This document shows, piece by piece, positions 1-10,614 of a stretch of DNA of 11,867 bases. The notes below the pieces were generated by a model that saw only the letters and a program-made list of their open reading frames with translations, was not told the origin of the DNA and did no database searches. Numbering within the stretch: position 1 is the stretch's first letter; the number at the start of each line of letters is the position of its first letter. The DNA is from a virus. Lineage: Duplodnaviria > Heunggongvirae > Uroviricota > Caudoviricetes. Made by a program: the position numbers and the translations under genes. Location: IMG/VR virus record IMGVR_UViG_2740892230_000035. One strand, written 5' to 3'.

Positions 1-334
1 ATGTCCCACGCTGTGGACGGTACTTACATTAAGGCACAACAGGACAAAATGGTCAATTCTTCGTTATGTAAAAAAGCGTCAGTGGATACATATTTTAATG
101 TTATGGAAGTTAATTTAATTATTTACAATGATGATGTAATAATGATGAATTAACATGATAAACGTAATAATTCATTAATCAGGGTTATTTTGTTTGATAT
201 ATATCAATTGGAACTTTCATATGACACTTAGAATCAATGCTCTCTATAGTGATGAATAATCATCATTCGAAGTCAGGTGGGATGCCTGTCTGAATACACC
301 TCCTTCAGGATGTGGGGGATTCTGCTGAGCATCT

Positions 335-676
335 ATGAAACTGAATGCAACTTATCTAAAAATACGTGATAAATGGTGGGGGCTTCCGCTGTTCCTGCCT
401 TCTTTAATCTTGCCCATTTTCGCCCACATTAATACTTTCGCGCATATTTCTTCCGGTGAGGTTTTTCTCTTTTATCTGCCTTTGGCACTGATGATCAGCA
501 TGATGATGTTTTTCAGCTGGGCGGCATTGCCAGGGATCACCTTAGGGATTTTTGTCCGCAAATATGCAGAGCTGGGTTTTTACGAAACGCTCTCATTAAC
601 GGCTAATTTTATTATCATTATCATTCTCTGTTGGGGCGGTTACAGGGTCTNNNNNNNNNNAACAGCTAACTCATAG
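335..676 (+). CDS. Putative multi-pass membrane protein (unrecognised family); 3' end interrupted by the 10-nt N-run at 651-660
   Basis: ORF with long hydrophobic stretches (LPLFLPSLILPIFA, FLFYLPLALMISMMMFFSWAALPGITLGIF, FIIIIILCWGG) followed by a terminator hairpin. True length is uncertain because of the gap. Confidence 0.4.
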   Translation: MKLNATYLKIRDKWWGLPLFLPSLILPIFAHINTFAHISSGEVFLFYLPLALMISMMMFFSWAALPGITLGIFVRKYAELGFYETLSLTANFIIIIILCWGGYRVXXXXTANS

Positions 677-704
677 CAAGTCATTCCTATTCAGATACTA
701 ACTC

Positions 705-737
705 AACCCTCTGTTTTTACAGAGGGTTTTTGTTTTT
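705..737 (+). terminator. Rho-independent terminator downstream of the membrane-protein ORF
   Basis: Inverted repeat CCCTCTG (707-713) / CAGAGGG (720-726) followed by TTTTTGTTTTT. Confidence 0.6.
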
Positions 738-793
738 ATGTATTCATTTCTATTCACTCTACACCATATTTTTCGGCGGTACAGGTGACGGTA

Positions 794-808
794 TTACCTT
801 AAAGGTAT
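794..808. promoter_or_regulatory. Operator-like dyad TTACCTTAAAGGTAT upstream of int, overlapping a candidate -10 (TATACT 806-811)
   Basis: Matches the TTACC-N5-GGTAA motif family; shares the 12-mer ACCTTAAAGGTA with the site at 6975-6989. Flanked by the 8-bp inverted repeat GACGGTAT (788-795) / ATACCGTC (815-822). Confidence 0.45.
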
Positions 809-850
809 ACTCTCATACCGTCATGAAAATGGTTTCTATACGGGTGAATT

Positions 851-2098
851 GTGCTTACCGATACAAAATTAAAAAACCTCAAGCCGCAGGACAAACTGTA
901 CAAGGTCTCCGATCGTGACGGGCTGTATGTAGCTGTGCTTACGTCAGGCACGGTCTCGTTTCGCTATGACTACCGTATCAACGGTCGCCGCGAAACACTG
1001 GTAATCGGGCAGTATGGGCGTGACGGTATCAGCCTGGCAGAAGCGCGAGAAGAACTGATTGCTGCAAAGAAGCTGCTTAAAGCAGGCCAGTCACCGGCTG
1101 CGGCTAAACGTGACGGTATCAAAAAGATTCGTGGTGCCGAGACGTTTGCGGTACATACCGACAGTTATATGAAACATGTCATCCTGGCTGACAGTACCCG
1201 CGCAATGAAGCAGGCGGTGATCGACCGTGACATACTTCCGGTTCTTGGCAACAAAATGATGACTGAAATTACCACATCGATGGTTCGTGATTTGTGTGAC
1301 CGGATTGTCGAACGCGGTGGTCGGGCAACAGCAGTGCAGGCCAGGGAGATCATCAGCAGCGTATACCGTCACGCCAATGACCGTGGTCATGGTTTGTTTA
1401 ATCCTGCGGCTGACATTAAACCTTCGTCTATCGCCATATTTAAACCACGAGAGCGAACACTGACACCAGAAGAAATTGGCCTGTTCTTCCGCACGCTGGA
1501 TGCCATTGGTGCTATGGGCACTATGAAAATGGCTTTAAAGCTGGTGCTTATCACTATGGTTCGTAAAGGCGAATTCACCAATGCAACGTGGGACGAAATA
1601 GATTTTAAAAAATGGACATGGACAATTCCTTCAGACCGCATGAAGGGAAGCCGGGCGCATGTTATTTACCTGCCTAAACAGGCACAGGATATATTGGTCG
1701 GGTTGCAGATGTACGCTGGTGGAAGTGAATATCTGGTTCCTGGTCGTTACAACTTCCGGAAGCCATTATCTAATGCCGCGCTGAACTCTCTGATCGACAG
1801 AACGGTGAAAATAATAAATGAAGATGGTGAGCATATTCAGGACTTCACCGTACATGATATGCGCCGTACAGCCAGTACGTTGTTGCATGAGGCTGGTTAT
1901 CCTTCAGACTGGATTGAAAAGGCTCTGGCACATGAGCAGAAAGGTGTGCGCGCCGTATATAACAAAGCGGAATACGCCAGACAGCGCGCCTACATGTTGC
2001 AGCAGTGGGCCGATATGATTGATTCCTGGATTGACGGGGAGCATACGGATCTGATTCCGTTCTCCCCGTCGAAGTTTGAGAAGTGGATGGCGGGATAA
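851..2098 (+). CDS. int: Phage tyrosine integrase, P4-type (site-specific recombinase)
   Basis: 415-aa ORF with GTG start. N-terminus MLTDTKLKNLKP...YKVSDRDGLY is typical of P4-family integrases. C-terminal catalytic signatures are visible (HDMRRTAST, ALAHEQKG, VYNKAEY), consistent with the R-H-R-Y active site. Confidence 0.92.
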   Translation: MLTDTKLKNLKPQDKLYKVSDRDGLYVAVLTSGTVSFRYDYRINGRRETLVIGQYGRDGISLAEAREELIAAKKLLKAGQSPAAAKRDGIKKIRGAETFAVHTDSYMKHVILADSTRAMKQAVIDRDILPVLGNKMMTEITTSMVRDLCDRIVERGGRATAVQAREIISSVYRHANDRGHGLFNPAADIKPSSIAIFKPRERTLTPEEIGLFFRTLDAIGAMGTMKMALKLVLITMVRKGEFTNATWDEIDFKKWTWTIPSDRMKGSRAHVIYLPKQAQDILVGLQMYAGGSEYLVPGRYNFRKPLSNAALNSLIDRTVKIINEDGEHIQDFTVHDMRRTASTLLHEAGYPSDWIEKALAHEQKGVRAVYNKAEYARQRAYMLQQWADMIDSWIDGEHTDLIPFSPSKFEKWMAG

Positions 2099-2104
2099 TA
2101 ACGT

Positions 2105-2299
2105 TTAATAGTTCTGCTGATTTTCTTCCATCTCGGCTTCTGCTGCCAGTGATTCAATTTTGTCTGCGAATATTGCTGACAGCGTTGCAAATTCAGCATC
2201 AGTGACAGCGGGAATTGGAACAAACCTGATCCCGCTGTGTGCAAGCATGTTTGCAGTTTCAAGGCATTTCCTTAAATCTGCTGGTGATGCCCTGTTCAT
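2105..2299 (-). CDS. Hypothetical small protein (64 aa) translationally coupled to the methyltransferase
   Basis: ATG at 2299..2297 overlaps the methyltransferase TGA stop (2298..2296) as ATGA. Product MNRASPADLRKCLETANMLAHSGIRF... No recognised family. Confidence 0.35.
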   Translation of the reverse strand: MNRASPADLRKCLETANMLAHSGIRFVPIPAVTDAEFATLSAIFADKIESLAAEAEMEENQQNY

Positions 2300-2946
2300 G
2301 CTGCACGCTCCCGCCCCTGGTTGTCTGTTGGTGACAGCGGAGCATTGCTGAATGCATTTGTTAATCCGGCAATATCCAACGCGTATCCAGGGTGTAGTTG
2401 CACTGCCGGGTCTTCGCACTGATTACCCCAAACATCGAAGCCATGAGACGTCTGGCGGGCGAATAGTTCAATGCGAGAAACATCGCCTAACAATTGCACA
2501 AGTTTTTCACGAACAATATCTGGTTTTCTTGAATGCTCAAGCCGCGGTGCGGTAAATGACTGAACGATCCCTGCATTAATGCGCGTAGGTAGTTTTCCCT
2601 TTACTGCAAACAGGCAATCTTCACTATTGGCGCGAGTCATGTGACCCATACCCATAACCAGTTTATCTGGTTGTCGACTACCACATTTTATCCACGTGAA
2701 TCCCTTCATGGTCATCAGACGGAATCCCCAGGCTTCAACAACTTTTAGTGCTTCGAGTGGTTGTGTTGGCACCCACCACATGGCCAACAGACAGTTTTCA
2801 TCGGCCAAATCCCACACAGGAAGGCGGCAGATATCCAGCACACTCATAACTGGATATTTAAAACCGGCACCGCGATTACCATCTGCGGCTTTGTCCCGGT
2901 ATGCCCAGGGTGGATCTGCATAGATTAGTGTGTATTTCTTAGTCAT
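2296..2946 (-). CDS. DNA N6-adenine methyltransferase, MT-A70 family (orphan, no cognate restriction enzyme seen)
   Basis: Product starts MTKKYTLIYADPPWAY; the DPPW motif is the catalytic motif IV of N6-adenine MTases. ATG at 2946 is preceded by GGGGTGG; a GTG at 2958 is an alternative start. Confidence 0.85.
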   Translation of the reverse strand: MTKKYTLIYADPPWAYRDKAADGNRGAGFKYPVMSVLDICRLPVWDLADENCLLAMWWVPTQPLEALKVVEAWGFRLMTMKGFTWIKCGSRQPDKLVMGMGHMTRANSEDCLFAVKGKLPTRINAGIVQSFTAPRLEHSRKPDIVREKLVQLLGDVSRIELFARQTSHGFDVWGNQCEDPAVQLHPGYALDIAGLTNAFSNAPLSPTDNQGRERAA

Positions 2947-3238
2947 AAACCACCCCACAACATCCTATGCCGCTATAGTCGCCACGGCGAAGGCCGTTAC
3001 CTTTTGTGATACATTGGTCCCTGCGAACCGCGATCCTTGCACGCTCAACATCACCAGAAGCAACATCCATACACTGAAGCCAAAGGTGAGCGGCAATGCG
3101 GAACTGCCCTTTTTTCTCTCTTTCAATCGCGCGTTTTTCGATCTCTATCGCCGCAGGAGTAACGGCGACAATCTTTGACGGACTGCGCATTGAAACCTTG
3201 TTCATGTGATATTTTTCAAGTCGGCTTAACTTTCTCAC
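2939..3238 (-). CDS. Hypothetical protein (99 aa), first gene of the methyltransferase cassette
   Basis: GTG start at 3238 preceded by AGAGGG. Stop codon (2941..2939) overlaps the methyltransferase start by 8 nt. No family recognised. Confidence 0.5.
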   Translation of the reverse strand: MRKLSRLEKYHMNKVSMRSPSKIVAVTPAAIEIEKRAIEREKKGQFRIAAHLWLQCMDVASGDVERARIAVRRDQCITKGNGLRRGDYSGIGCCGVVYD

Positions 3239-3347
3239 TTAATCCAACCCTCTCTGAAAATTAATGCCAGCAGATAAAGCCATGCTGAAACAGAGGCCAG
3301 GAATAAGTACCATCCTGACCATTTGCTCCAGTGCCTTAGCAGCGCAC

Positions 3348-3596
3348 TCATGCAGCGTTGCTCACAGGACGATATACACGTTGCTGAACAGGAGGTTTTT
3401 TACCCTGGAACTCTGCCGGGCTTGCTGCCTGACGTTCATCAAGCCAACGCTCAACTTCATCACGGTTCCATGCGCAGCGTTTATCGGTGATATACCAGCG
3501 TTTAGGAAATTCCCCTGCGCGCTCCATACGGTCGATAGTGCTCCATGACAGTGGCACCACCGCCAGGAGTTCCTTCTTACCTAATGCACCTTTCAT
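3348..3596 (-). CDS. AlpA-family excisionase / prophage transcriptional regulator (Xis-like)
   Basis: 82-aa product with LLAVVPLSWSTIDRMERAGEFPKRWYI...WNRDEVERWLDE, a winged-helix pattern typical of AlpA/Xis proteins. RBS GAGAGG 6 nt upstream of ATG. Confidence 0.8.
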   Translation of the reverse strand: MKGALGKKELLAVVPLSWSTIDRMERAGEFPKRWYITDKRCAWNRDEVERWLDERQAASPAEFQGKKPPVQQRVYRPVSNAA

Positions 3597-3645
3597 AAAT
3601 ACCTCTCTTGGTTGCAGTGCGGCGCGCGTGGCGCCGCGGTGGTGG

Positions 3646-4527
3646 TTACATAGATGTTTCGTTTAATTCTTCCCGACGAACGCTGTAAACGTCGGTGGCT
3701 TTTGCCAGCAGTTCGTCATCATCTGAAAGTTTTTGTGCAATGTATTTGTAAGCCTTATCCAGTTCGGAGACAGTGCTGTAATTCATCGCTGCGCTGGTAA
3801 AGGCCATCAGCATTTCTTCTGGCTCACGGCTATCCGCTTTACGCGTTTGCTCATCAGGCTTTTTCACTGATTTAGCGTTGATCAGACTGTTCATTCCCGC
3901 AGCCGTAGTCATTTGCGGAGTAATGTCTCGCTCAACGCGCGGTGCCGTTTCCTGTAATTCGTCAGGGGTGTAAACACCGAGAAGTACATCAGGAGCGTGC
4001 AGGCGAGCCCATCGTTTCGTGCAAAGATAGGCGAGCTGCTGGCGCGGATCCTGTTCCCACAATGGAGAGTTACGCACTCCGGCTTGCGCCATACTGATGG
4101 TAAGCTCACGTGGTTCTGCTTCTCCTTTAAGAACTGCTGACACAGTTACCGTCAGATTCGGTGATTTATCTGTTTTGCCGTTAACATTCGACCAGTCACC
4201 GCTCCAGCGATAATTCAGGCGTGTCGCCAGCAGGCTGGAAGAGGATACGACCGCGTTTACCAACTGTGCTTCGTAGCCTAACGTTCCGTTTACCACATGC
4301 GTTTTCTGCGCCACGGCGAACGGGTTCATTCCCCACTGTGCCGCCTGCATGGTCACCGCCAGGCAATCGGCAGGTTTGCCTTCAAGATGTTTCGGTACAG
4401 TCGCTTTGCTTTGTGACATCAACTCCGCGAAACGCACCAGTTGATTCATGCCCTCGGGGCTGAAGATTGCCGCAGCAGTGCCTACAGTTGCGCCTGGTTG
4501 TGATGTGATTGCGATATCATTGCTCAT
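3646..4527 (-). CDS. RecT/Bet-family single-strand annealing recombinase
   Basis: 293-aa product; GMNPFAVAQKTHVV...GYEAQL and the C-terminal ERDITP segment resemble lambda Bet/RecT as I recall them. ATG overlaps the upstream exonuclease stop as ATGA (4527..4524). Confidence 0.8.
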   Translation of the reverse strand: MSNDIAITSQPGATVGTAAAIFSPEGMNQLVRFAELMSQSKATVPKHLEGKPADCLAVTMQAAQWGMNPFAVAQKTHVVNGTLGYEAQLVNAVVSSSSLLATRLNYRWSGDWSNVNGKTDKSPNLTVTVSAVLKGEAEPRELTISMAQAGVRNSPLWEQDPRQQLAYLCTKRWARLHAPDVLLGVYTPDELQETAPRVERDITPQMTTAAGMNSLINAKSVKKPDEQTRKADSREPEEMLMAFTSAAMNYSTVSELDKAYKYIAQKLSDDDELLAKATDVYSVRREELNETSM

Positions 4528-5345
4528 ACATACATATCCTGTTTACGTGCCCAGTCAGGACGTTTAATAATTTCCACTCCGCCCCATTCATCGTTGATGC
4601 GGCATTCGTGATAGGTATTCAGATCCCGGCGGAACAGAGCGTGCCCGGCATCGACATCCGGCACATCCAGCTCGAACACGCGTACCGGATACCGACCACA
4701 ATCAATGCTTTCGCTCACGGCAAGAAAGAAAAAACCATGCGGCTGACCAGTAACCCTCATTGCGCCTTCGCGGTACATTGCGTCCTGCACGTGGTAGCGG
4801 AATTCCTCGATGTGACGTGCAAAACGCTCCATATCTGCAACCTTTTTCACGTCGACGATCACGTTGTGCTCGTTCAGCCATTTGTCTGGACGAATTCGGC
4901 ACAACTCACCAGTCTCTTCATCGTTCCAGTACATTGACGCTTCGCAGTAACCAGGTGCTTCCAGCATCCAGCGTGCCGCCGGGTGAGCCATTGCGCTATC
5001 ACGCATCAGCTCCAGTTTCCGCCACTGCTCGGCATCAAGTACCGTAATCCCCATATCCGCCACATCACGAAGAAATGCCTCTTCGTCAGCTTTACCTTGT
5101 TTCGTCCGACGATCGAATTTCGGTGAAACAATGAAGCGTTTGTCGAACTCTCCAGGCTCCAGAAGCAGACAGTGCAATGCGGTTCCCATATCCAGTGCAG
5201 ACTTTTTCTCTTCGTCTTCTGGTGCTGCCTGAACCCATTTAAGAAGCGCCGGATTCTTGGCAACCATGTCAAGTTGCGACTTACTCACGCCGTCACCGGC
5301 GTGGTAGTCTTCGTTGCTGATGTCGAAATAAATTCCCGGTTTCAT
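4524..5345 (-). CDS. RecE-like (exonuclease VIII catalytic domain type) PD-(D/E)XK exonuclease
   Basis: 273-aa product with N-terminus MKPGIYFDISNEDYHAGDGVSKSQL and a candidate active-site segment RIRPDKW...VIVDVKKV. Paired with the RecT-like gene. ATGA overlap with the upstream ORF at 5345..5342. Confidence 0.75.
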   Translation of the reverse strand: MKPGIYFDISNEDYHAGDGVSKSQLDMVAKNPALLKWVQAAPEDEEKKSALDMGTALHCLLLEPGEFDKRFIVSPKFDRRTKQGKADEEAFLRDVADMGITVLDAEQWRKLELMRDSAMAHPAARWMLEAPGYCEASMYWNDEETGELCRIRPDKWLNEHNVIVDVKKVADMERFARHIEEFRYHVQDAMYREGAMRVTGQPHGFFFLAVSESIDCGRYPVRVFELDVPDVDAGHALFRRDLNTYHECRINDEWGGVEIIKRPDWARKQDMYV

Positions 5346-5641
5346 GCCGCGTCCTTCTGTCCATCAAGCTGATCCGCCAGATCCCAGCGGGCGATAATTG
5401 CCATTGCCTCTCGCCGATAGGCATCCATCAGTTCTTCGAACTCAGGGCTGTCTTTAGCAGCCTCCAGTACTTCCTGACGAACGCCTTTGCCTGTTACAAC
5501 GTCGAAAGTTGAGGACAGTTGATGAAGTCGGATGCTCTCAATCAGTTCAACTTGTCGGTCATATAGCTGTTCTGACAGGCGGTAGTCCTTGTCGAATGCC
5601 AGCATGATTTTTTGAAGATTTTTCTGCTGATTAACGTTCAT
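5342..5641 (-). CDS. Hypothetical early protein (99 aa) upstream of the exonuclease
   Basis: ATG at 5641 preceded by GGAGGG (8-nt spacing). Product MNVNQQKNLQKIMLAFDKDYRLSEQLYDRQVELIES...; acidic C-terminus; no recognised family. Confidence 0.55.
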   Translation of the reverse strand: MNVNQQKNLQKIMLAFDKDYRLSEQLYDRQVELIESIRLHQLSSTFDVVTGKGVRQEVLEAAKDSPEFEELMDAYRREAMAIIARWDLADQLDGQKDAA

Positions 5642-5643
5642 TA

Positions 5644-5796
5644 TCAGCCCTCCCATATCTCGTTATCGTTGGCCACATCGCGAGCTTCTTTGCTGACGAA
5701 AGCCCACTTAATGCCTTCCTGTAAGGTGCGGAACTTCCAGCTCATGAATCCGCATGCAGTAACGCAGTACCAACCGTTGATGATTTTCCACTGCAT
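5644..5796 (-). CDS. Small hypothetical protein (50 aa), first ORF of the leftward early operon; below the supplied ORF-track length cutoff
   Basis: ATG at 5796..5794 with GAGG 9 nt upstream. Product MQWKIINGWYCVTACGFMSWKFRTLQEGIKWAFVSKEARDVANDNEIWEG. TGA stop sits 2 nt before the next ATG. Confidence 0.4.
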   Translation of the reverse strand: MQWKIINGWYCVTACGFMSWKFRTLQEGIKWAFVSKEARDVANDNEIWEG

Positions 5797-5815
5797 AACT
5801 TGTTACCTCGGCTTG

Positions 5816-5892
5816 TTACCGTTTAGGTAATGATTATGCGTATCTGGTTTGATGTCAATAGATATGAGTTAAAAAAATTACCTGTAAGGTAA
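5816..5892 (-). promoter_or_regulatory. Left operator/promoter region (OL/pL analogue): two 15-bp dyads flanking a candidate leftward promoter
   Basis: TTACCGTTTAGGTAA (5816-5830) and TTACCTGTAAGGTAA (5878-5892). On the minus strand a consensus TTGACA (-35; complement of 5854-5859) lies between them, with a CATAAT-like -10 at roughly 15-bp spacing. Confidence 0.55.
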
Positions 5893-5902
5893 TTGTGCGG
5901 GC

Positions 5903-5929
5903 AATAAAAAAGCCGCCATGAGGCGGCTT
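5903..5929 (-). terminator. Rho-independent terminator downstream of the repressor gene
   Basis: Minus-strand hairpin AAGCCGCC-TCAT-GGCGGCTT followed by TTTTTTATT; 21 nt after the repressor stop codon. Confidence 0.65.
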
Positions 5930-5949
5930 ACTTACTGAAAACTATAGTT

Positions 5950-6534
5950 TTATTGTTTGCTTTTTTCGTTCTGGCTGATGACAAATTCAATGTAACTTTC
6001 GATCTTTGCCTTCTCTGTTTCAGGTAACAATGCGTAGCGCGAGCGGTCATAGTTGATAGTTGCAGGGTCATGCGGGTGAATCAGTAGTTCATATCCGTGA
6101 CGCCCGAATGCTGATGCAACATTCTCCAGGGTGGAAATGGAAACGCTGACCTCATTGTTTAACAGGCGGCTAATTGTCACCTGGGCGACGCCGGATGCGC
6201 GGTGAAGTTTTCCCTGTGTTGAAAGGTCGCGGCTTTCGCTCATCCAGCGTTCCAGGTTGTGAGCCGCCAGCTGACCAATGTCGCTTGGTCCGACAGGCTG
6301 AACCCCCTCCTGAGAAAGCGAGCGATCGATATCAAGCCAGTTACGGGGTTTATTGGCGGCAGCTTCAATTTTTCGCGCAACCTGGTCGCCGATAACCTTC
6401 TTGCCAAGAGCCCAGCGGTTTACCAGATTTGCCTGAGTTCCAAGTTTTTCTGCCATCCGCGTCTGAACACCATTGAATTCACGGTCGATCAAGTCGTTGA
6501 GATTTTGCCTGCGGACGTCCTGGATACTTTTCAT
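5950..6534 (-). CDS. Prophage repressor (CI-like) with two HTH-like segments and no recognisable S24 autocleavage domain
   Basis: 194 aa. N-terminal HTH-like segment (QTRMAEKLGTQANLVNRWALGKK) and a second (LHRASGVAQVTISRLLNNE). Divergent from a Cro-like gene across an operator cluster. No obvious RBS; possibly leaderless or weakly initiated. Confidence 0.8.
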   Translation of the reverse strand: MKSIQDVRRQNLNDLIDREFNGVQTRMAEKLGTQANLVNRWALGKKVIGDQVARKIEAAANKPRNWLDIDRSLSQEGVQPVGPSDIGQLAAHNLERWMSESRDLSTQGKLHRASGVAQVTISRLLNNEVSVSISTLENVASAFGRHGYELLIHPHDPATINYDRSRYALLPETEKAKIESYIEFVISQNEKSKQ

Positions 6535-6589
6535 TTTCTGGAGAATCGCCTCATATATGAATCAGTAGATGATTCAATTTAAAGCAATA

Positions 6590-6652
6590 TTACCCAACAG
6601 GTAAATGCACCCCATAGGTAACTATCCTTGATTTTTGTTACCTTATGGGTGA
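6590..6652. promoter_or_regulatory. Right operator region (OR analogue) with three 15-bp dyad sites and divergent promoters
   Basis: TTACCCAACAGGTAA (6590-6604), GCACCCCATAGGTAA (6607-6621), TTACCTTATGGGTGA (6638-6652). Candidate rightward promoter: -35 TTGTTA (6635-6640), 17-bp spacer, -10 TATTAT (6658-6663), overlapped by the third site. Confidence 0.6.
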
Positions 6653-6688
6653 ATATTTATTATCTGAAATAAATATCAGGCAATAGCT

Positions 6689-6919
6689 ATGAGCGATAAC
6701 GGACATTTCGATTTCAAAAAGCACTGGCTTGCACTTACTCCGGATGAGCGTGAAGCCTTCGCACAGGAAGCCGGAACGACGAGTCACTATATCCAGACTC
6801 ACTTAACAGGTAAGCGCAAAATGCCAGGTAAAGTATTGATGAATGGGCTTTTTAAAGCCTGTAAAACAAGACAATGGCTGCGCTCAAAAGCAGAACTGGC
6901 ATACTTCTTCTACTCATGA
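6689..6919 (+). CDS. Cro-like small HTH DNA-binding regulator
   Basis: 76-aa ORF divergent from the repressor. HTH-like segment EAFAQEAGTTSHYIQTHLTGKRK. Followed by a terminator. Confidence 0.7.
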   Translation: MSDNGHFDFKKHWLALTPDEREAFAQEAGTTSHYIQTHLTGKRKMPGKVLMNGLFKACKTRQWLRSKAELAYFFYS

Positions 6920-6940
6920 TATCCAGCCACAAACCTCTGT

Positions 6941-6965
6941 AGACCGCCATCCGGCGGTCTTTTCA
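6941..6965 (+). terminator. Rho-independent terminator after the cro-like gene (tR1 analogue)
   Basis: Hairpin GACCGCC-ATCC-GGCGGTC followed by TTTT. Confidence 0.6.
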
Positions 6966-6974
6966 TATCTATTC

Positions 6975-6989
6975 GCACCTTAAAGGTAA
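6975..6989. promoter_or_regulatory. Operator-like dyad GCACCTTAAAGGTAA between the terminator and the replication genes
   Basis: Motif-family member; shares ACCTTAAAGGTA with the site upstream of int. A TTGATC -35-like hexamer lies at 7007-7012. Confidence 0.4.
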
Positions 6990-7067
6990 TAAAAAACCAA
7001 ATCTGGTTGATCAAATTTTCCAATTGTGCAAAATAGCCAATATCAATAACAAAAAGGGGCGGAAAAA

Positions 7068-9356: not shown

Positions 9357-9963
9357 ATGGACGGTAATATCAAAGGGTTAGTTTCCGCCGGGCATGAGAT
9401 GGCTTCGGAACTGAAAGCTGAATGTGGTGCCGTTGATATGCGCAGCGTGGCAAAGCTGATCAGCGATTTGGCAACGCAACTGGAAGTGCAACTGGCGCGT
9501 GCTAATGCGCTGGCCGAAGACCAGCAGAAAGCGATTGAGTCAATTAAGCAGGCTGATGCGGCTGTTAAGTTGGCACACGAGAAGTTTTCGGCTCTGGCGG
9601 CGGAGAATGCGGGGCTGAATAAATTTATCGCACAGAGTTGCTACGTGTTTGATGGCGAGCAGGATGAGCTATCTGATGCGTATATCTGCGCAACAGATGG
9701 AGGGATGCCGCAAATTCCAGCCACCGATGCTTTTCTGGCTGAAATTCGTGCGGAGGCTCGCAACGAGGGGATTAACTATACCGCAAGCCGTCTTGCTGCT
9801 GCTTNNNNNNNNNNCACCAGCCACCGATGCTTTCCTGGCTGAAGTCCGGGCGCAGGGTGTGGAGATGTTCTCAGAAAAATTCGGAGGTGGCACTCCGCTA
9901 TCCAATATGGTCAAAGAGGTTGCTGCTGATTTTGCGGCGAAGCTTCGCAAAGGAGGTGAGTAG
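9357..9963 (+). CDS. ead/Ea22-like family protein with coiled-coil N-terminus; interrupted by the N-run at 9805-9814 (apparent frame shift across the gap)
   Basis: Two ORF-track pieces (9357-9842 and 9649-9963) share the repeat PATDAFLAEIRAE / PATDAFLAEVRAQ on either side of the gap. Ends ...AAKLRKGGE. Confidence 0.65.
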
Positions 9964-10173
9964 TGCGTGTGGCATGTATCGGCTTGTTNNNNNNNNNNCC
10001 ACGGATTTATCAATAAGTCTTTACGTGAAGTTTTCGACGTTACGCGCATGATTCTGTCAGCAAAAGAAGAGTTAGCTAATGAATCGCATCCGATTGATGG
10101 CCTGTCCGGTGAATATGCAGAGAAATCCCTTGAAGAATGGGCGGAACGGCTTCGCAAAGGAGGCAACCAGTGA
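9963..10173 (+). CDS. Small Ea22-region ORF (about 68 aa) interrupted by the N-run at 9989-9998; start uncertain
   Basis: GTG at 9963 preceded by AGGAGG; ends ...WAERLRKGGNQ, echoing the upstream gene end. Frame across the gap cannot be verified. Confidence 0.35.
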
Positions 10174-10577: not shown

Positions 10578-10614
10578 GATGAACGNNNNNNNNNNAACGC
10601 AGGAGAACAAAACG

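Follow-up and report, generated by a model that had tools for sequence, protein, structure and literature searches.

Gene content of the locus

The window, an 11,867-nt stretch of a Caudoviricetes genome (IMG/VR record IMGVR_UViG_2740892230_000035), contains at 2105–3238 three overlapping minus-strand genes, a region that sequence comparison places next to int, where the early-left (pL) operon of temperate podophages of the phiV10/epsilon15 type (genus Uetakevirus) ends. In the order of transcription these encode a 99-aa PerC-family regulator with a GTG start (2939–3238), a 216-aa MT-A70 methyltransferase with an ATG start (2296–2946; PF05063, 1.4e-22; phrog_359, 1.8e-120) and a 64-aa DUF1382 protein that also starts with ATG (2105–2299; PF07131, 1.3e-30; phrog_292). 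Upstream in the same operon, again on the minus strand, are a PD-(D/E)XK exonuclease (4524–5345; Pfam DUF3799, 7.2e-22), RecT (3646–4527; Pfam RecT, 1.4e-31), an AlpA-family regulator that is a candidate excisionase (3348–3596; phrog_66 ‘excisionase and transcriptional regulator’) and a 38-aa membrane protein (3235–3351), taken from the list of open reading frames and equivalent to phiV10p35 and epsilon15 gp32. A double-HTH prophage repressor (Pfam HTH_3; equivalent to phiV10p40) is encoded at 5950–6534 on the same strand, and a P4-type tyrosine integrase on the plus strand (851–2098; Pfam Arm-DNA-bind_3, Phage_int_M and Phage_integrase; equivalent to phiV10p31) converges on the operon, with its stop codon 6 nt from that of the DUF1382 gene.

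On rechecking, the coordinates of the three genes in the original prediction, both of their overlaps and their placement between int and the excisionase candidate all proved exact. The 8-nt overlap at 2939–2946 comprises the PerC stop codon TAA (2941–2939) and the methyltransferase ATG (2946–2944), and the plus-strand tcat at 2296–2299 reads as ATGA on the minus strand, joining the methyltransferase stop to the DUF1382 start. The 38-aa ORF, overlooked in that prediction, shares 4 nt with the AlpA stop and another 4 nt with the PerC GTG start (GTGA), which extends the chain of overlaps to five genes: AlpA, which heads it with a Shine-Dalgarno sequence of its own (GAGAGG), the 38-aa membrane ORF, PerC, the methyltransferase and DUF1382. 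Because the coupling chain spans five genes, the excisionase candidate among them, the boundary drawn around three of them is arbitrary. Six of the eight junctions in the operon overlap, the others being a 2-nt gap and the 49-nt RecT–AlpA spacer; overlapping junctions are thus usual throughout the operon and single out no three-gene unit, and they probably represent ordinary translational coupling along its whole length.

Over bases 2000–3700, nucleotide identity is 98.2% with phiV10 and 99.9% with E. coli Z142-1, and at least 80% of this interval is contained in 537 of 5,426 complete E. coli genomes (~10%); in a 99%-identical complete genome, the prophage adjoins guaA. The phiV10 genes p32–p36 (NC_007804) match the window in order, overlaps and families (int, DUF1382, methyltransferase, PerC, 38-aa membrane protein, AlpA), with 97% identity for the methyltransferase and 98% for DUF1382, but phiV10 has a RecE–RecT fusion where the window has two genes, and its PerC is annotated with 88 aa, whereas conservation favors 99 aa. 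The region of Salmonella phage epsilon15 equivalent to the window’s five genes (gp28–gp33) differs in that a membrane protein, listed in the annotation as a serotype-conversion factor, occupies the position of DUF1382 and an extra small gene separates PerC from the methyltransferase. The phiV10 and RefSeq annotations give the same family names to all three genes, and with the same order already annotated in phiV10 (DQ126339, a GenBank accession of the 2005 series) and found in about a tenth of complete E. coli genomes, the locus is already known and its novelty is low.

An orphan MT-A70 methyltransferase with intact motifs

The methyltransferase covers the entire PF05063 profile (residues 5–176 against positions 1–172 of 172; 80.9 bits vs a cut-off of 23.9) and is also matched by the PADLOC model MTase_II (1.3e-77). 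Its catalytic motif IV, DPPW (11–14), and the motifs SRKPD (139–143), ELFAR (160–164) and GNQ (174–176) align with MTA1, and in two alignments DPPW, SxKP, ELFxR and GN(Q/E) vary hardly or not at all among homologs down to 47% identity; the SxKP, ELFxR and GNQ positions correspond to the AdoMet-binding residues of METTL3. The gene is under strong purifying selection (dN/dS 0.06–0.08). In an AlphaFold2 model (pLDDT 73, pTM 0.74), the low-confidence parts are the loops 18–29 and 98–105 and the C-terminal tail, and the best Foldseek matches of this model are METTL3 and MTA1 (probability 1.00, TM 0.60–0.68). By sequence, the enzyme is an orphan class-beta MT-A70 N6-adenine methyltransferase with intact catalytic motifs, predicted to act on DNA or RNA. 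Searches of the literature (MT-A70, prophage, methylome, phiV10, Uetakevirus) returned no experiment on it or a close homolog, and its activity, its substrate (DNA or RNA) and its motif are therefore all predictions.

Full-length Pfam MT-A70 coverage, shared motifs and the predicted fold liken the protein to the catalytic subunits of METTL3–METTL14 and of the ciliate MTA1 complex (MTA1c). These eukaryotic enzymes are hetero-oligomeric and carry extra nucleic-acid-binding parts, whereas the window protein is a bare 216-aa domain and its homologs are single-domain proteins of 188–216 aa. All solved MT-A70 relatives found by sequence and fold searches act in hetero-oligomers (METTL3–METTL14; MTA1–MTA9–p1–p2), and no solved bacterial or phage member was among the matches; nor did the literature and PDB searches return enzymology, a methylome or a structure for any bacterial or phage MT-A70. 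Since the solved relatives need partners and no DNA-recognition domain is obvious here, the phage enzyme may also require one.

The claim that the enzyme has no restriction endonuclease partner holds for the window, whose remaining ORFs yielded none when scanned with Pfam and PADLOC, and for the annotation of the complete phiV10 genome, which lists none. The PADLOC scan likewise assigned no defense-system partner to the small proteins. In being a prophage-borne orphan class-beta adenine methyltransferase, the enzyme resembles M.EcoGI and M.EcoGII, which are silent in lysogens and presumed to counter restriction during lytic growth (PMC5778455). M.EcoGII is a 349-aa enzyme with a DPPY motif, a central target-recognition domain and proven non-specific activity (PMC5778455), whereas the window enzyme is an MT-A70 protein with DPPW, no target-recognition domain and an activity that is predicted. 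We rejected kinship between them, as the 349-aa DPPY enzymes with their target-recognition domain are not homologous to it at the family level.

PerC-family and Orf63-like neighbors

Both small proteins, listed as unknowns in the original prediction, belong to named families. The 99-aa protein is a PerC-family transcriptional regulator: it scores 30.1 bits against PF06069 (cut-off 22.6), phrog_868 ‘transcriptional activator’ covers all 99 residues (5.7e-62), and RefSeq names the gene ‘PerC family transcriptional regulator’. Like PerC of EPEC and the Pch proteins of EHEC prophages, it is small, prophage-borne and above the curated Pfam cut-off, but it matches the profile only in residues 35–80 (profile positions 5–50 of 90); its score against ANR (NCBIfam NF033650), 23.6 bits, is below the cut-off of 32. 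Elsewhere the protein is annotated with 83 aa (PGAP) or 88 aa (phiV10), and the N-terminal RLEKYH.N.VS kept in epsilon15, SPN1S, Tyrion and BUCT711 favors the 99-aa start. Its dN/dS is 0.11–0.125. The adjacent 38-aa protein shares 82% identity with its counterparts in Tyrion, SPN1S and epsilon15 (dN/dS 0.11–0.16), and AlpA scores 24.2 bits against PF05930 (cut-off 21; dN/dS 0.04–0.06).

The 64-aa protein, product of the last gene of the operon, whose ATG is preceded at 8 nt by the Shine-Dalgarno sequence GGGAG, is a homolog of lambda Orf63. It matches PF07131 over positions 1–60 of 60 (105.7 bits vs a cut-off of 27), is 50% identical to lambda Orf63, itself annotated as DUF1382, and aligns through residues 2–62 with the solved NMR structure of Orf63 (PDB 8dsb, E = 6e-13); pN is 0.30–0.37 vs a pS of 0.77–0.83. 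Deletion of orf63 from lambda or phage 24B makes prophage induction later and weaker and raises host survival (PMC5575149, PMC10869804), and by analogy the DUF1382 protein may be a small dimeric factor that favors lytic development. As with orf63 in the lambda exo–xis region, its gene is part of a mosaic, non-essential set of small early-left genes close to those for recombination and excision, and DUF1317 (lambda orf60a) is found in the same block in relatives of the window. In lambda, however, orf63 is flanked by orf60a and orf61 and a methyltransferase gene is absent, whereas here the DUF1382 gene closes the operon behind that of the methyltransferase. All three ORFs are thus real genes, each with a Pfam match above the gathering score and under purifying selection, including the two small ones whose conservation had been in question.

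Predicted transcription of the early-left operon

Promoters and terminators were sought by a consensus scan only, and the promoter and operator calls lean additionally on the annotation of a relative. On the minus strand, the scan found zero promoter-like or terminator-like sites in 1900–5800, and the sole promoter-like site of 1900–6800 (TTGACA and AATCAT, 17 nt apart; 5858 to 5830) lies in a candidate pL region at 5816–5893. Operator-like palindromes of the form TTACC-N6-GGTAA flank this site at 5816–5831 and 5878–5893, half-sites related to them occur at 6592–6654, and the epsilon15 annotation places repressor-binding sites at the position equivalent to the candidate pL region. A terminator-like site (5929–5910) follows the repressor gene, and the pL-like site lies beyond that terminator. 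We infer that transcription of the operon starts at a promoter near 5858–5830 under the control of the repressor; the lysogen would therefore keep the operon silent, and infection or induction would turn it on. The 49-nt RecT–AlpA spacer contains, on the minus strand, an all-GC 7-bp hairpin (3619–3637; RNA fold −17.3 kcal/mol, z = −1.9), which we rejected as an intrinsic terminator because it has no U-tract and its fold z is only −1.9; the equivalent epsilon15 site is annotated ‘stem-loop; transcriptional pausing’. An Rfam scan of 1–6800 found no structured RNA.

As the three genes lie downstream of the operator-flanked promoter-like site, and the consensus scan assigns them neither a promoter nor a terminator, they do not look like a classic moron. 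The methyltransferase and PerC are present in all six Uetakevirus genomes inspected, with variation in the DUF1382 slot only, and GC content is unremarkable (0.45–0.49 for the genes vs 0.48 for the window); neither observation lends support to the proposal of an inserted moron.

The same arrangement bears on whether the enzyme could be a lysogenic-conversion or epigenetic factor that methylates the host chromosome to change host or prophage expression; epigenetic regulation was among the roles offered in the original prediction. Dam and CcrM, for instance, are orphan adenine methyltransferases that regulate genes (PMC7544214), E. coli genomes carry this prophage very often, and the neighboring gene belongs to the PerC family, members of which are reported to govern virulence regulons (PMC4764244, PMC5293775). 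We nevertheless consider this role unlikely: such a factor would have to be expressed from the penultimate position of an operon of ~3.7 kb behind an operator-flanked promoter-like site, the scan gives the gene no promoter-like site of its own, M.EcoGI and M.EcoGII are silent in the lysogen (PMC5778455), and the literature searches returned no extra m6A motif assigned to this methyltransferase gene.

Neighborhoods of related methyltransferase genes

In the six Uetakevirus genomes (phiV10, epsilon15, SPN1S, Tyrion, BUCT711 and PAS61), the MT-A70 gene always adjoins int at the end of the operon, int and AlpA are always kept apart and PerC is always present; the only variable slot is that of DUF1382, which in PAS61 holds a NinI phosphatase. 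PerC keeps company with AlpA and the 38-aa gene rather than with the methyltransferase, and one to three genes stand between it and the latter in Tyrion, SPN1S, epsilon15 and BUCT711. More widely, neither PerC nor DUF1382 lies within 3 kb at 40 of 80 related viral methyltransferase loci, at least five unrelated families occupy the slot directly downstream of the methyltransferase among relatives, and in lambda, 434 and BP-4795 the DUF1382 gene stands beside DUF1317-type genes and not beside a methyltransferase. In comparison with Stx2a phages, identity is 84% for the methyltransferase but only ~53% for DUF1382, so the two have separate histories.

These neighborhoods count against the original model, in which the three genes were acquired together as one functional unit and the methyltransferase is modulated or targeted by the two small proteins. 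The overlaps between start and stop codons would fit such a unit, as would the dependence of the solved MT-A70 relatives on non-catalytic or DNA-binding partners and the adjacency of DUF1382 and the methyltransferase in 22 of 22 loci. Yet the many loci without either small protein, the genes intervening between PerC and the methyltransferase in four phages, the variable downstream slot, the other pairing of DUF1382 in lambda, 434 and BP-4795, the unequal divergence from Stx2a phages, the scan that assigns the cassette neither a promoter nor a terminator and an overlap chain that reaches AlpA all speak against it, and we regard a shared unit as very unlikely.

Simple independence of DUF1382 and the methyltransferase does not explain one observation, namely that wherever DUF1382 occurs within 3 kb it directly adjoins the methyltransferase (22 of 22 loci), on either side and in three arrangements: it is downstream in the window and in Stx2a phages and upstream in four other loci (L032, L033, L054 and L057). 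This adjacency and the hydrophobic cleft by which lambda Orf63 binds amphipathic helices would fit a reading in which the bare MT-A70 domain, like METTL3 and MTA1, is not self-sufficient and a dimer of the Orf63-like DUF1382 protein serves as a facultative subunit that recruits or regulates the methyltransferase, a reading that we rate as very improbable.

In Tyrion, SPN1S, epsilon15, BUCT711, Vibrio phage douglas and SopranoGao, the proteins encoded after the methyltransferase were considered as hidden DUF1382 homologs and rejected; among them, only those of SPN1S and BUCT711 resemble each other. We likewise rejected a natural PerC–methyltransferase fusion, which would have pointed to a functional link: the two candidates, P0005 (297 aa) and P0002 (263 aa), have only three and two member sequences and seem to stem from deletions at the overlap, one of 1 nt and one internal, rather than from a conserved architecture.

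Proposed role of the methyltransferase

The reading that we consider probable is that of a phiV10-type early operon with functionally independent neighbors, in which the methyltransferase protects lytic progeny DNA from restriction. Under this model, the operon would be off in the lysogen and switched on upon infection or induction, the methyltransferase would then N6-methylate adenines of the replicating phage DNA, and progeny genomes would leave partly shielded from the restriction systems of the current or next host, while PerC, as a transcription regulator, and the Orf63-like protein would act independently of it. An enzyme that is expressed early could shield only the progeny; it cannot protect the incoming genome. 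Anti-restriction had been offered in the original prediction as one possible role, and for an orphan MT-A70 enzyme with intact motifs it is the most reasonable one.

Another possibility is that the methyltransferase serves phage DNA metabolism, for example as a packaging mark or in replication timing, or that it methylates RNA. Cleavage at the P1 pac site requires adenine methylation, the annotation of phiV10 likens its large terminase to P1 PacB, and the gene is kept in every Uetakevirus genome inspected. For RNA as the substrate, the closest solved relatives include RNA m6A writers, and homologs are labeled ‘N6-adenosine-specific RNA methylase IME4’, a label that is merely a COG name transfer. 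Against these roles, the gene lies in the accessory, mosaic part of the genome and not among the packaging genes, the copies of some Stx2a phages are truncated (only residues 94–187 are matched), and the annotated product of Stx2a_F451 has no DPPW N-terminus, which suggests that the gene is dispensable there. We see this group of roles as quite improbable and retain the protection of progeny DNA as our working model.

With all three genes already deposited and named, the discovery value of the locus is small, but it offers two corrections to annotation, the start codon of PerC and a conserved 38-aa gene left unannotated. If the DUF1382 protein were indeed a subunit of the methyltransferase, orf63, a gene of the lambdoid exo–xis region, would gain a connection with adenine methylation of DNA or RNA, and this would be the first prokaryotic case of partner-dependent MT-A70 activity. 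Thousands of MT-A70 homologs are prokaryotic relatives of the eukaryotic m6A writers, and the target motif of an enzyme carried by such a common prophage would be useful both for reading E. coli methylomes and for predicting phage host range.

Five overlapping genes at the end of an operon

The three minus-strand open reading frames of the original prediction were confirmed at exactly their coordinates, and scans of Pfam, PHROGs and NCBIfam assigned each protein to a family. The 216-aa protein (2296–2946, ATG start, ADPPW at residues 10–14) matches the whole MT-A70 domain (PF05063, 1.4e-22) as well as phrog_359. The two small proteins, previously held to be unknowns, also proved recognizable: the 99-aa protein (2939–3238, GTG start) belongs to the PerC family (PF06069, 30.1 bits, cut-off 22.6) and matches phrog_868 (‘transcriptional activator’) over its full length at 5.7e-62, and the 64-aa protein (2105–2299, ATG start) is a full-length DUF1382 member (PF07131, 1.3e-30). 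RefSeq names the three genes accordingly, as ‘MT-A70 family methyltransferase’, ‘PerC family transcriptional regulator’ and ‘DUF1382 family protein’. The lambda record labels orf63 (31005–31196) as DUF1382, which makes this the lambda Orf63 family, and the 64-aa protein matches the NMR structure of lambda Orf63 (8dsb) at E = 6e-13 over residues 2–62. Orf63 is a folded dimer whose hydrophobic cleft binds an amphipathic helix, and deletion of Orf63 makes prophage induction later and weaker and raises host survival (PMC5575149, PMC10869804).

The methyltransferase and DUF1382 genes overlap at 2296–2299 (tcat on the plus strand, ATGA on the minus strand), and the methyltransferase frame opens with the ATG at 2946–2944, the PerC-like stop codon TAA (2941–2939) falling 8 nt inside it. 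These overlaps had been taken to delimit a three-gene unit, but the chain has five members, running from AlpA through a 38-aa protein, PerC and the methyltransferase to DUF1382. The 38-aa ORF (3235–3351, minus strand, ATG start), which the prediction did not include, overlaps the PerC start (GTG) by 4 nt at its stop, and at its own ATG overlaps by 4 nt the stop of the AlpA-family gene (3348–3596, minus strand), the excisionase candidate. The exo and RecT genes, farther upstream in this operon, likewise share 4 nt. Starting with the promoter-proximal gene there are eight junctions, of which six overlap; the remaining two are a 2-nt gap and a 49-nt spacer between RecT and AlpA. Gene overlap is therefore a character of the whole operon rather than of a three-gene unit. 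At the far end, the convergent stops of int (851–2098, plus strand) and DUF1382 (2105) are separated by just 6 nt and by no terminator (2096–2107), so that early-left read-through would produce RNA antisense to int, which could regulate it.

Annotated lengths of the PerC gene disagree (83 aa in PGAP, 88 aa in phiV10, 99 aa in epsilon15 and PAS61), the disputed start region being 3190–3238 on the minus strand. The first eleven residues of the 99-aa form (RLEKYH.N.VS) are kept in four divergent relatives, which start with ATG, and this favors the 99-aa call with its GTG at 3238 over the shorter annotations. The 38-aa gene encodes a conserved membrane protein equivalent to phiV10p35 and epsilon15 gp32, and carries no PGAP annotation in RefSeq E. 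coli genomes. Public assemblies also contain rare PerC–methyltransferase fusions, homologous to 2296–3238, of 297 aa (P0005, three member sequences) and 263 aa (P0002, two); the former looks like the loss of one T within the GGTTTATGA overlap. Because a slippery heptamer is absent, both probably reflect sequencing error or sporadic mutation.

A known Uetakevirus element under predicted early-left control

The element is already known by sequence and annotation. Bases 2000–3700 share 98.2% identity with Escherichia phage phiV10 (genus Uetakevirus) and 97.7–98.8% with some fifteen further phage records, at least 80% of this segment is found in 537 of 5,426 complete E. coli genomes (best match 99.9%), and the annotated phiV10 order is the same: int, DUF1382, methyltransferase, PerC, 38-aa membrane protein, AlpA, RecT. 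Bases 661–7012 match, at 99.1%, a prophage that adjoins guaA in strain Z142-1. Bases 1–650, by contrast, are from the E. coli core gene pdeF (100% identity to strain 55989), and four runs of exactly ten N interrupt the sequence (651–660, 9805–9814, 9989–9998 and 10586–10595), indicating together with the guaA-adjacent match that the window is a scaffold or otherwise stitched from non-contiguous DNA. The right-hand N gaps fall within a region encoding the repeated peptide motif PATDAFLAE-RA.

The genes had been read as a moron inserted between int and the excisionase gene. Several observations speak against this: in each of the six Uetakevirus genomes inspected, an MT-A70 gene sits at the int-proximal end of the operon and int lies apart from AlpA, and a consensus scan of minus-strand bases 1900–5800 found no promoter-like or terminator-like site that the cassette could call its own. 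GC content of the genes is 0.45–0.49, against a window mean of 0.48. The sole minus-strand promoter-like site (TTGACA, 17-nt spacer, AATCAT at 5858–5830), the candidate pL, lies just past the repressor-gene terminator and has a palindrome on either side (TTACCGTTTAGGTAA and TTACCTGTAAGGTAA). Half-sites resembling these recur at 6592–6654, in the divergent control region, and repressor sites are annotated at the equivalent position in epsilon15. Between RecT and AlpA lies a 7-bp all-GC hairpin (GCGGCGC/GCGCCGC, 3619–3637, minus strand) without a U-tract, whose epsilon15 equivalent is annotated as a transcriptional pause site. We infer that the genes belong to the distal part of an early-left operon under repressor control; in a lysogen they would then be silent, and infection or induction would switch them on. 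An epigenetic role of the methyltransferase in the lysogen, set beside this predicted silence, appears unlikely.

An orphan methyltransferase with intact motifs

The sequence gives no support to an inactive enzyme. D11-P-P-W14, S139-x-K-P, E160-L-F-x-R164 and G174-N-Q are fully or almost fully conserved in alignments that extend down to 47% identity and align with ciliate MTA1, and an AlphaFold2 model (pLDDT 73, pTM 0.74) resembles the catalytic subunits of METTL3 and MTA1 (TM 0.60–0.68). We take the motif residues to be the METTL3 catalytic and AdoMet-binding residues. Compared with Tyrion, SPN1S and epsilon15, dN/dS is 0.06–0.08 for the methyltransferase, 0.11–0.125 for PerC, 0.11–0.16 for the 38-aa gene and 0.04–0.06 for AlpA; for DUF1382 it is 0.066 against phiV10, and against lambda and Stx2a_F451, where synonymous sites are saturated, pN is 0.30–0.37 and pS 0.77–0.83. 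All of these genes are under purifying selection. A protein database search returned 3,086 methyltransferase homologues at E ≤ 1e-10, with an MT-A70 domain in all 120 listed.

PADLOC places the enzyme among Type II methyltransferases. Its orphan status stands: Pfam and PADLOC scans of the window's remaining ORFs detected no endonuclease or other defence partner, and no endonuclease is annotated across the complete phiV10 genome. In Stx2a_F451 (locus L005, 2219–2857) the annotated MT-A70 product lacks the DPPW N-terminus, and several Stx2a phages (hits H121–H124) match residues 94–187 only, which suggests that the gene is decaying in part of this lineage.

Exchange of genes on both sides of the methyltransferase

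Comparison of genomes speaks against the original suggestion that the small proteins might be partners that modulate or target the methyltransferase, whose neighbors differ among relatives. After PerC come DUF1317, a wHTH protein, the methyltransferase and a 68-aa protein in Tyrion; DUF1317, a DndB-like protein, the methyltransferase and a 59-aa protein in SPN1S; DUF1317, the methyltransferase and a 63-aa protein in BUCT711; gp30, the methyltransferase and a membrane protein in epsilon15; and the methyltransferase and a NinI phosphatase in PAS61. Among the small proteins encoded downstream of the methyltransferase, at least five unrelated families are represented. Among IMG/VR loci that encode a methyltransferase homologue, we surveyed the best 80 together with 3 kb of flanking sequence in each direction: 14 share the window's arrangement, 10 have PerC adjacent without DUF1382, 8 have PerC further upstream without DUF1382, 4 have PerC further upstream and DUF1382 immediately upstream of the methyltransferase, 4 show the Stx-phage arrangement (methyltransferase then DUF1382, without PerC) and 40 have neither small gene. 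Vibrio and Klebsiella phages likewise carry the methyltransferase without either. In these loci PerC always accompanies AlpA, usually with the 38-aa gene, as part of the Uetakevirus backbone.

A three-part functional unit could still be argued from DUF1382, which directly adjoins the methyltransferase, on either side, in all 22 of these loci that have it within 3 kb. The copies immediately upstream (L032, L033, L054 and L057, about 2735–3001) overlap it by 4 nt and are 61–76% identical to the window copy (75–76% in L032 and L033). However, with half of the best loci lacking both small genes and the flanking families swapping among relatives, such a unit is very unlikely. In lambda, 434 and BP-4795, DUF1382 adjoins DUF1317-type genes and not a methyltransferase; identity between the window prophage and Stx2a phages is about 84% for the methyltransferase but only about 53% for DUF1382, so the two genes have recombined independently. 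A functional link between these two genes alone is, in our estimate, likewise very unlikely. The simplest reading is that both methyltransferase flanks are recombination hot spots for accessory genes.

Two neighbors deserve mention. Directly upstream of the SPN1S MT-A70 gene, and overlapping it, is a gene for a 331-aa DndB-like DGQHR-domain protein (locus L007, 2509–3504; DndB by Pfam, 1.3e-42, and PADLOC, 2.4e-33); a phosphorothioation-associated protein is an unusual companion for an adenine methyltransferase. An ASCH-domain protein occurs in both phiV10 (L093, 38492–38773) and Stx2a_F451 (L005, 5292–5576); any link to the phage methyltransferase is speculative.

Discussion

The best-supported reading of our analysis is that the methyltransferase would be expressed after infection or induction and would protect phage DNA from restriction by N6-methylation. 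A pL transcript would carry the recombination genes, AlpA, the 38-aa gene, PerC, the methyltransferase and DUF1382, with ordinary translational coupling moving ribosomes along the operon; the enzyme would then N6-methylate adenines of replicating phage DNA and so may shield progeny from restriction. What the parts are and how the operon is laid out are shown by the analysis; when the genes are expressed, DNA as the substrate and the anti-restriction role are predictions. A part in the phage's own DNA metabolism, or methylation of RNA, is an alternative that we regard as quite improbable. Anti-restriction is the role usually assumed for phage orphan methyltransferases, and M.EcoGI and M.EcoGII are silent in the lysogen (PMC5778455), as predicted here; they belong to another family than MT-A70. 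In our literature searches, no publication dealt with the specificity of an MT-A70 enzyme from bacteria or phages, and searches of the PDB gave no solved structure of one. The enzymology of MT-A70 proteins in bacteria and phages, though no surprise, is a gap worth filling.
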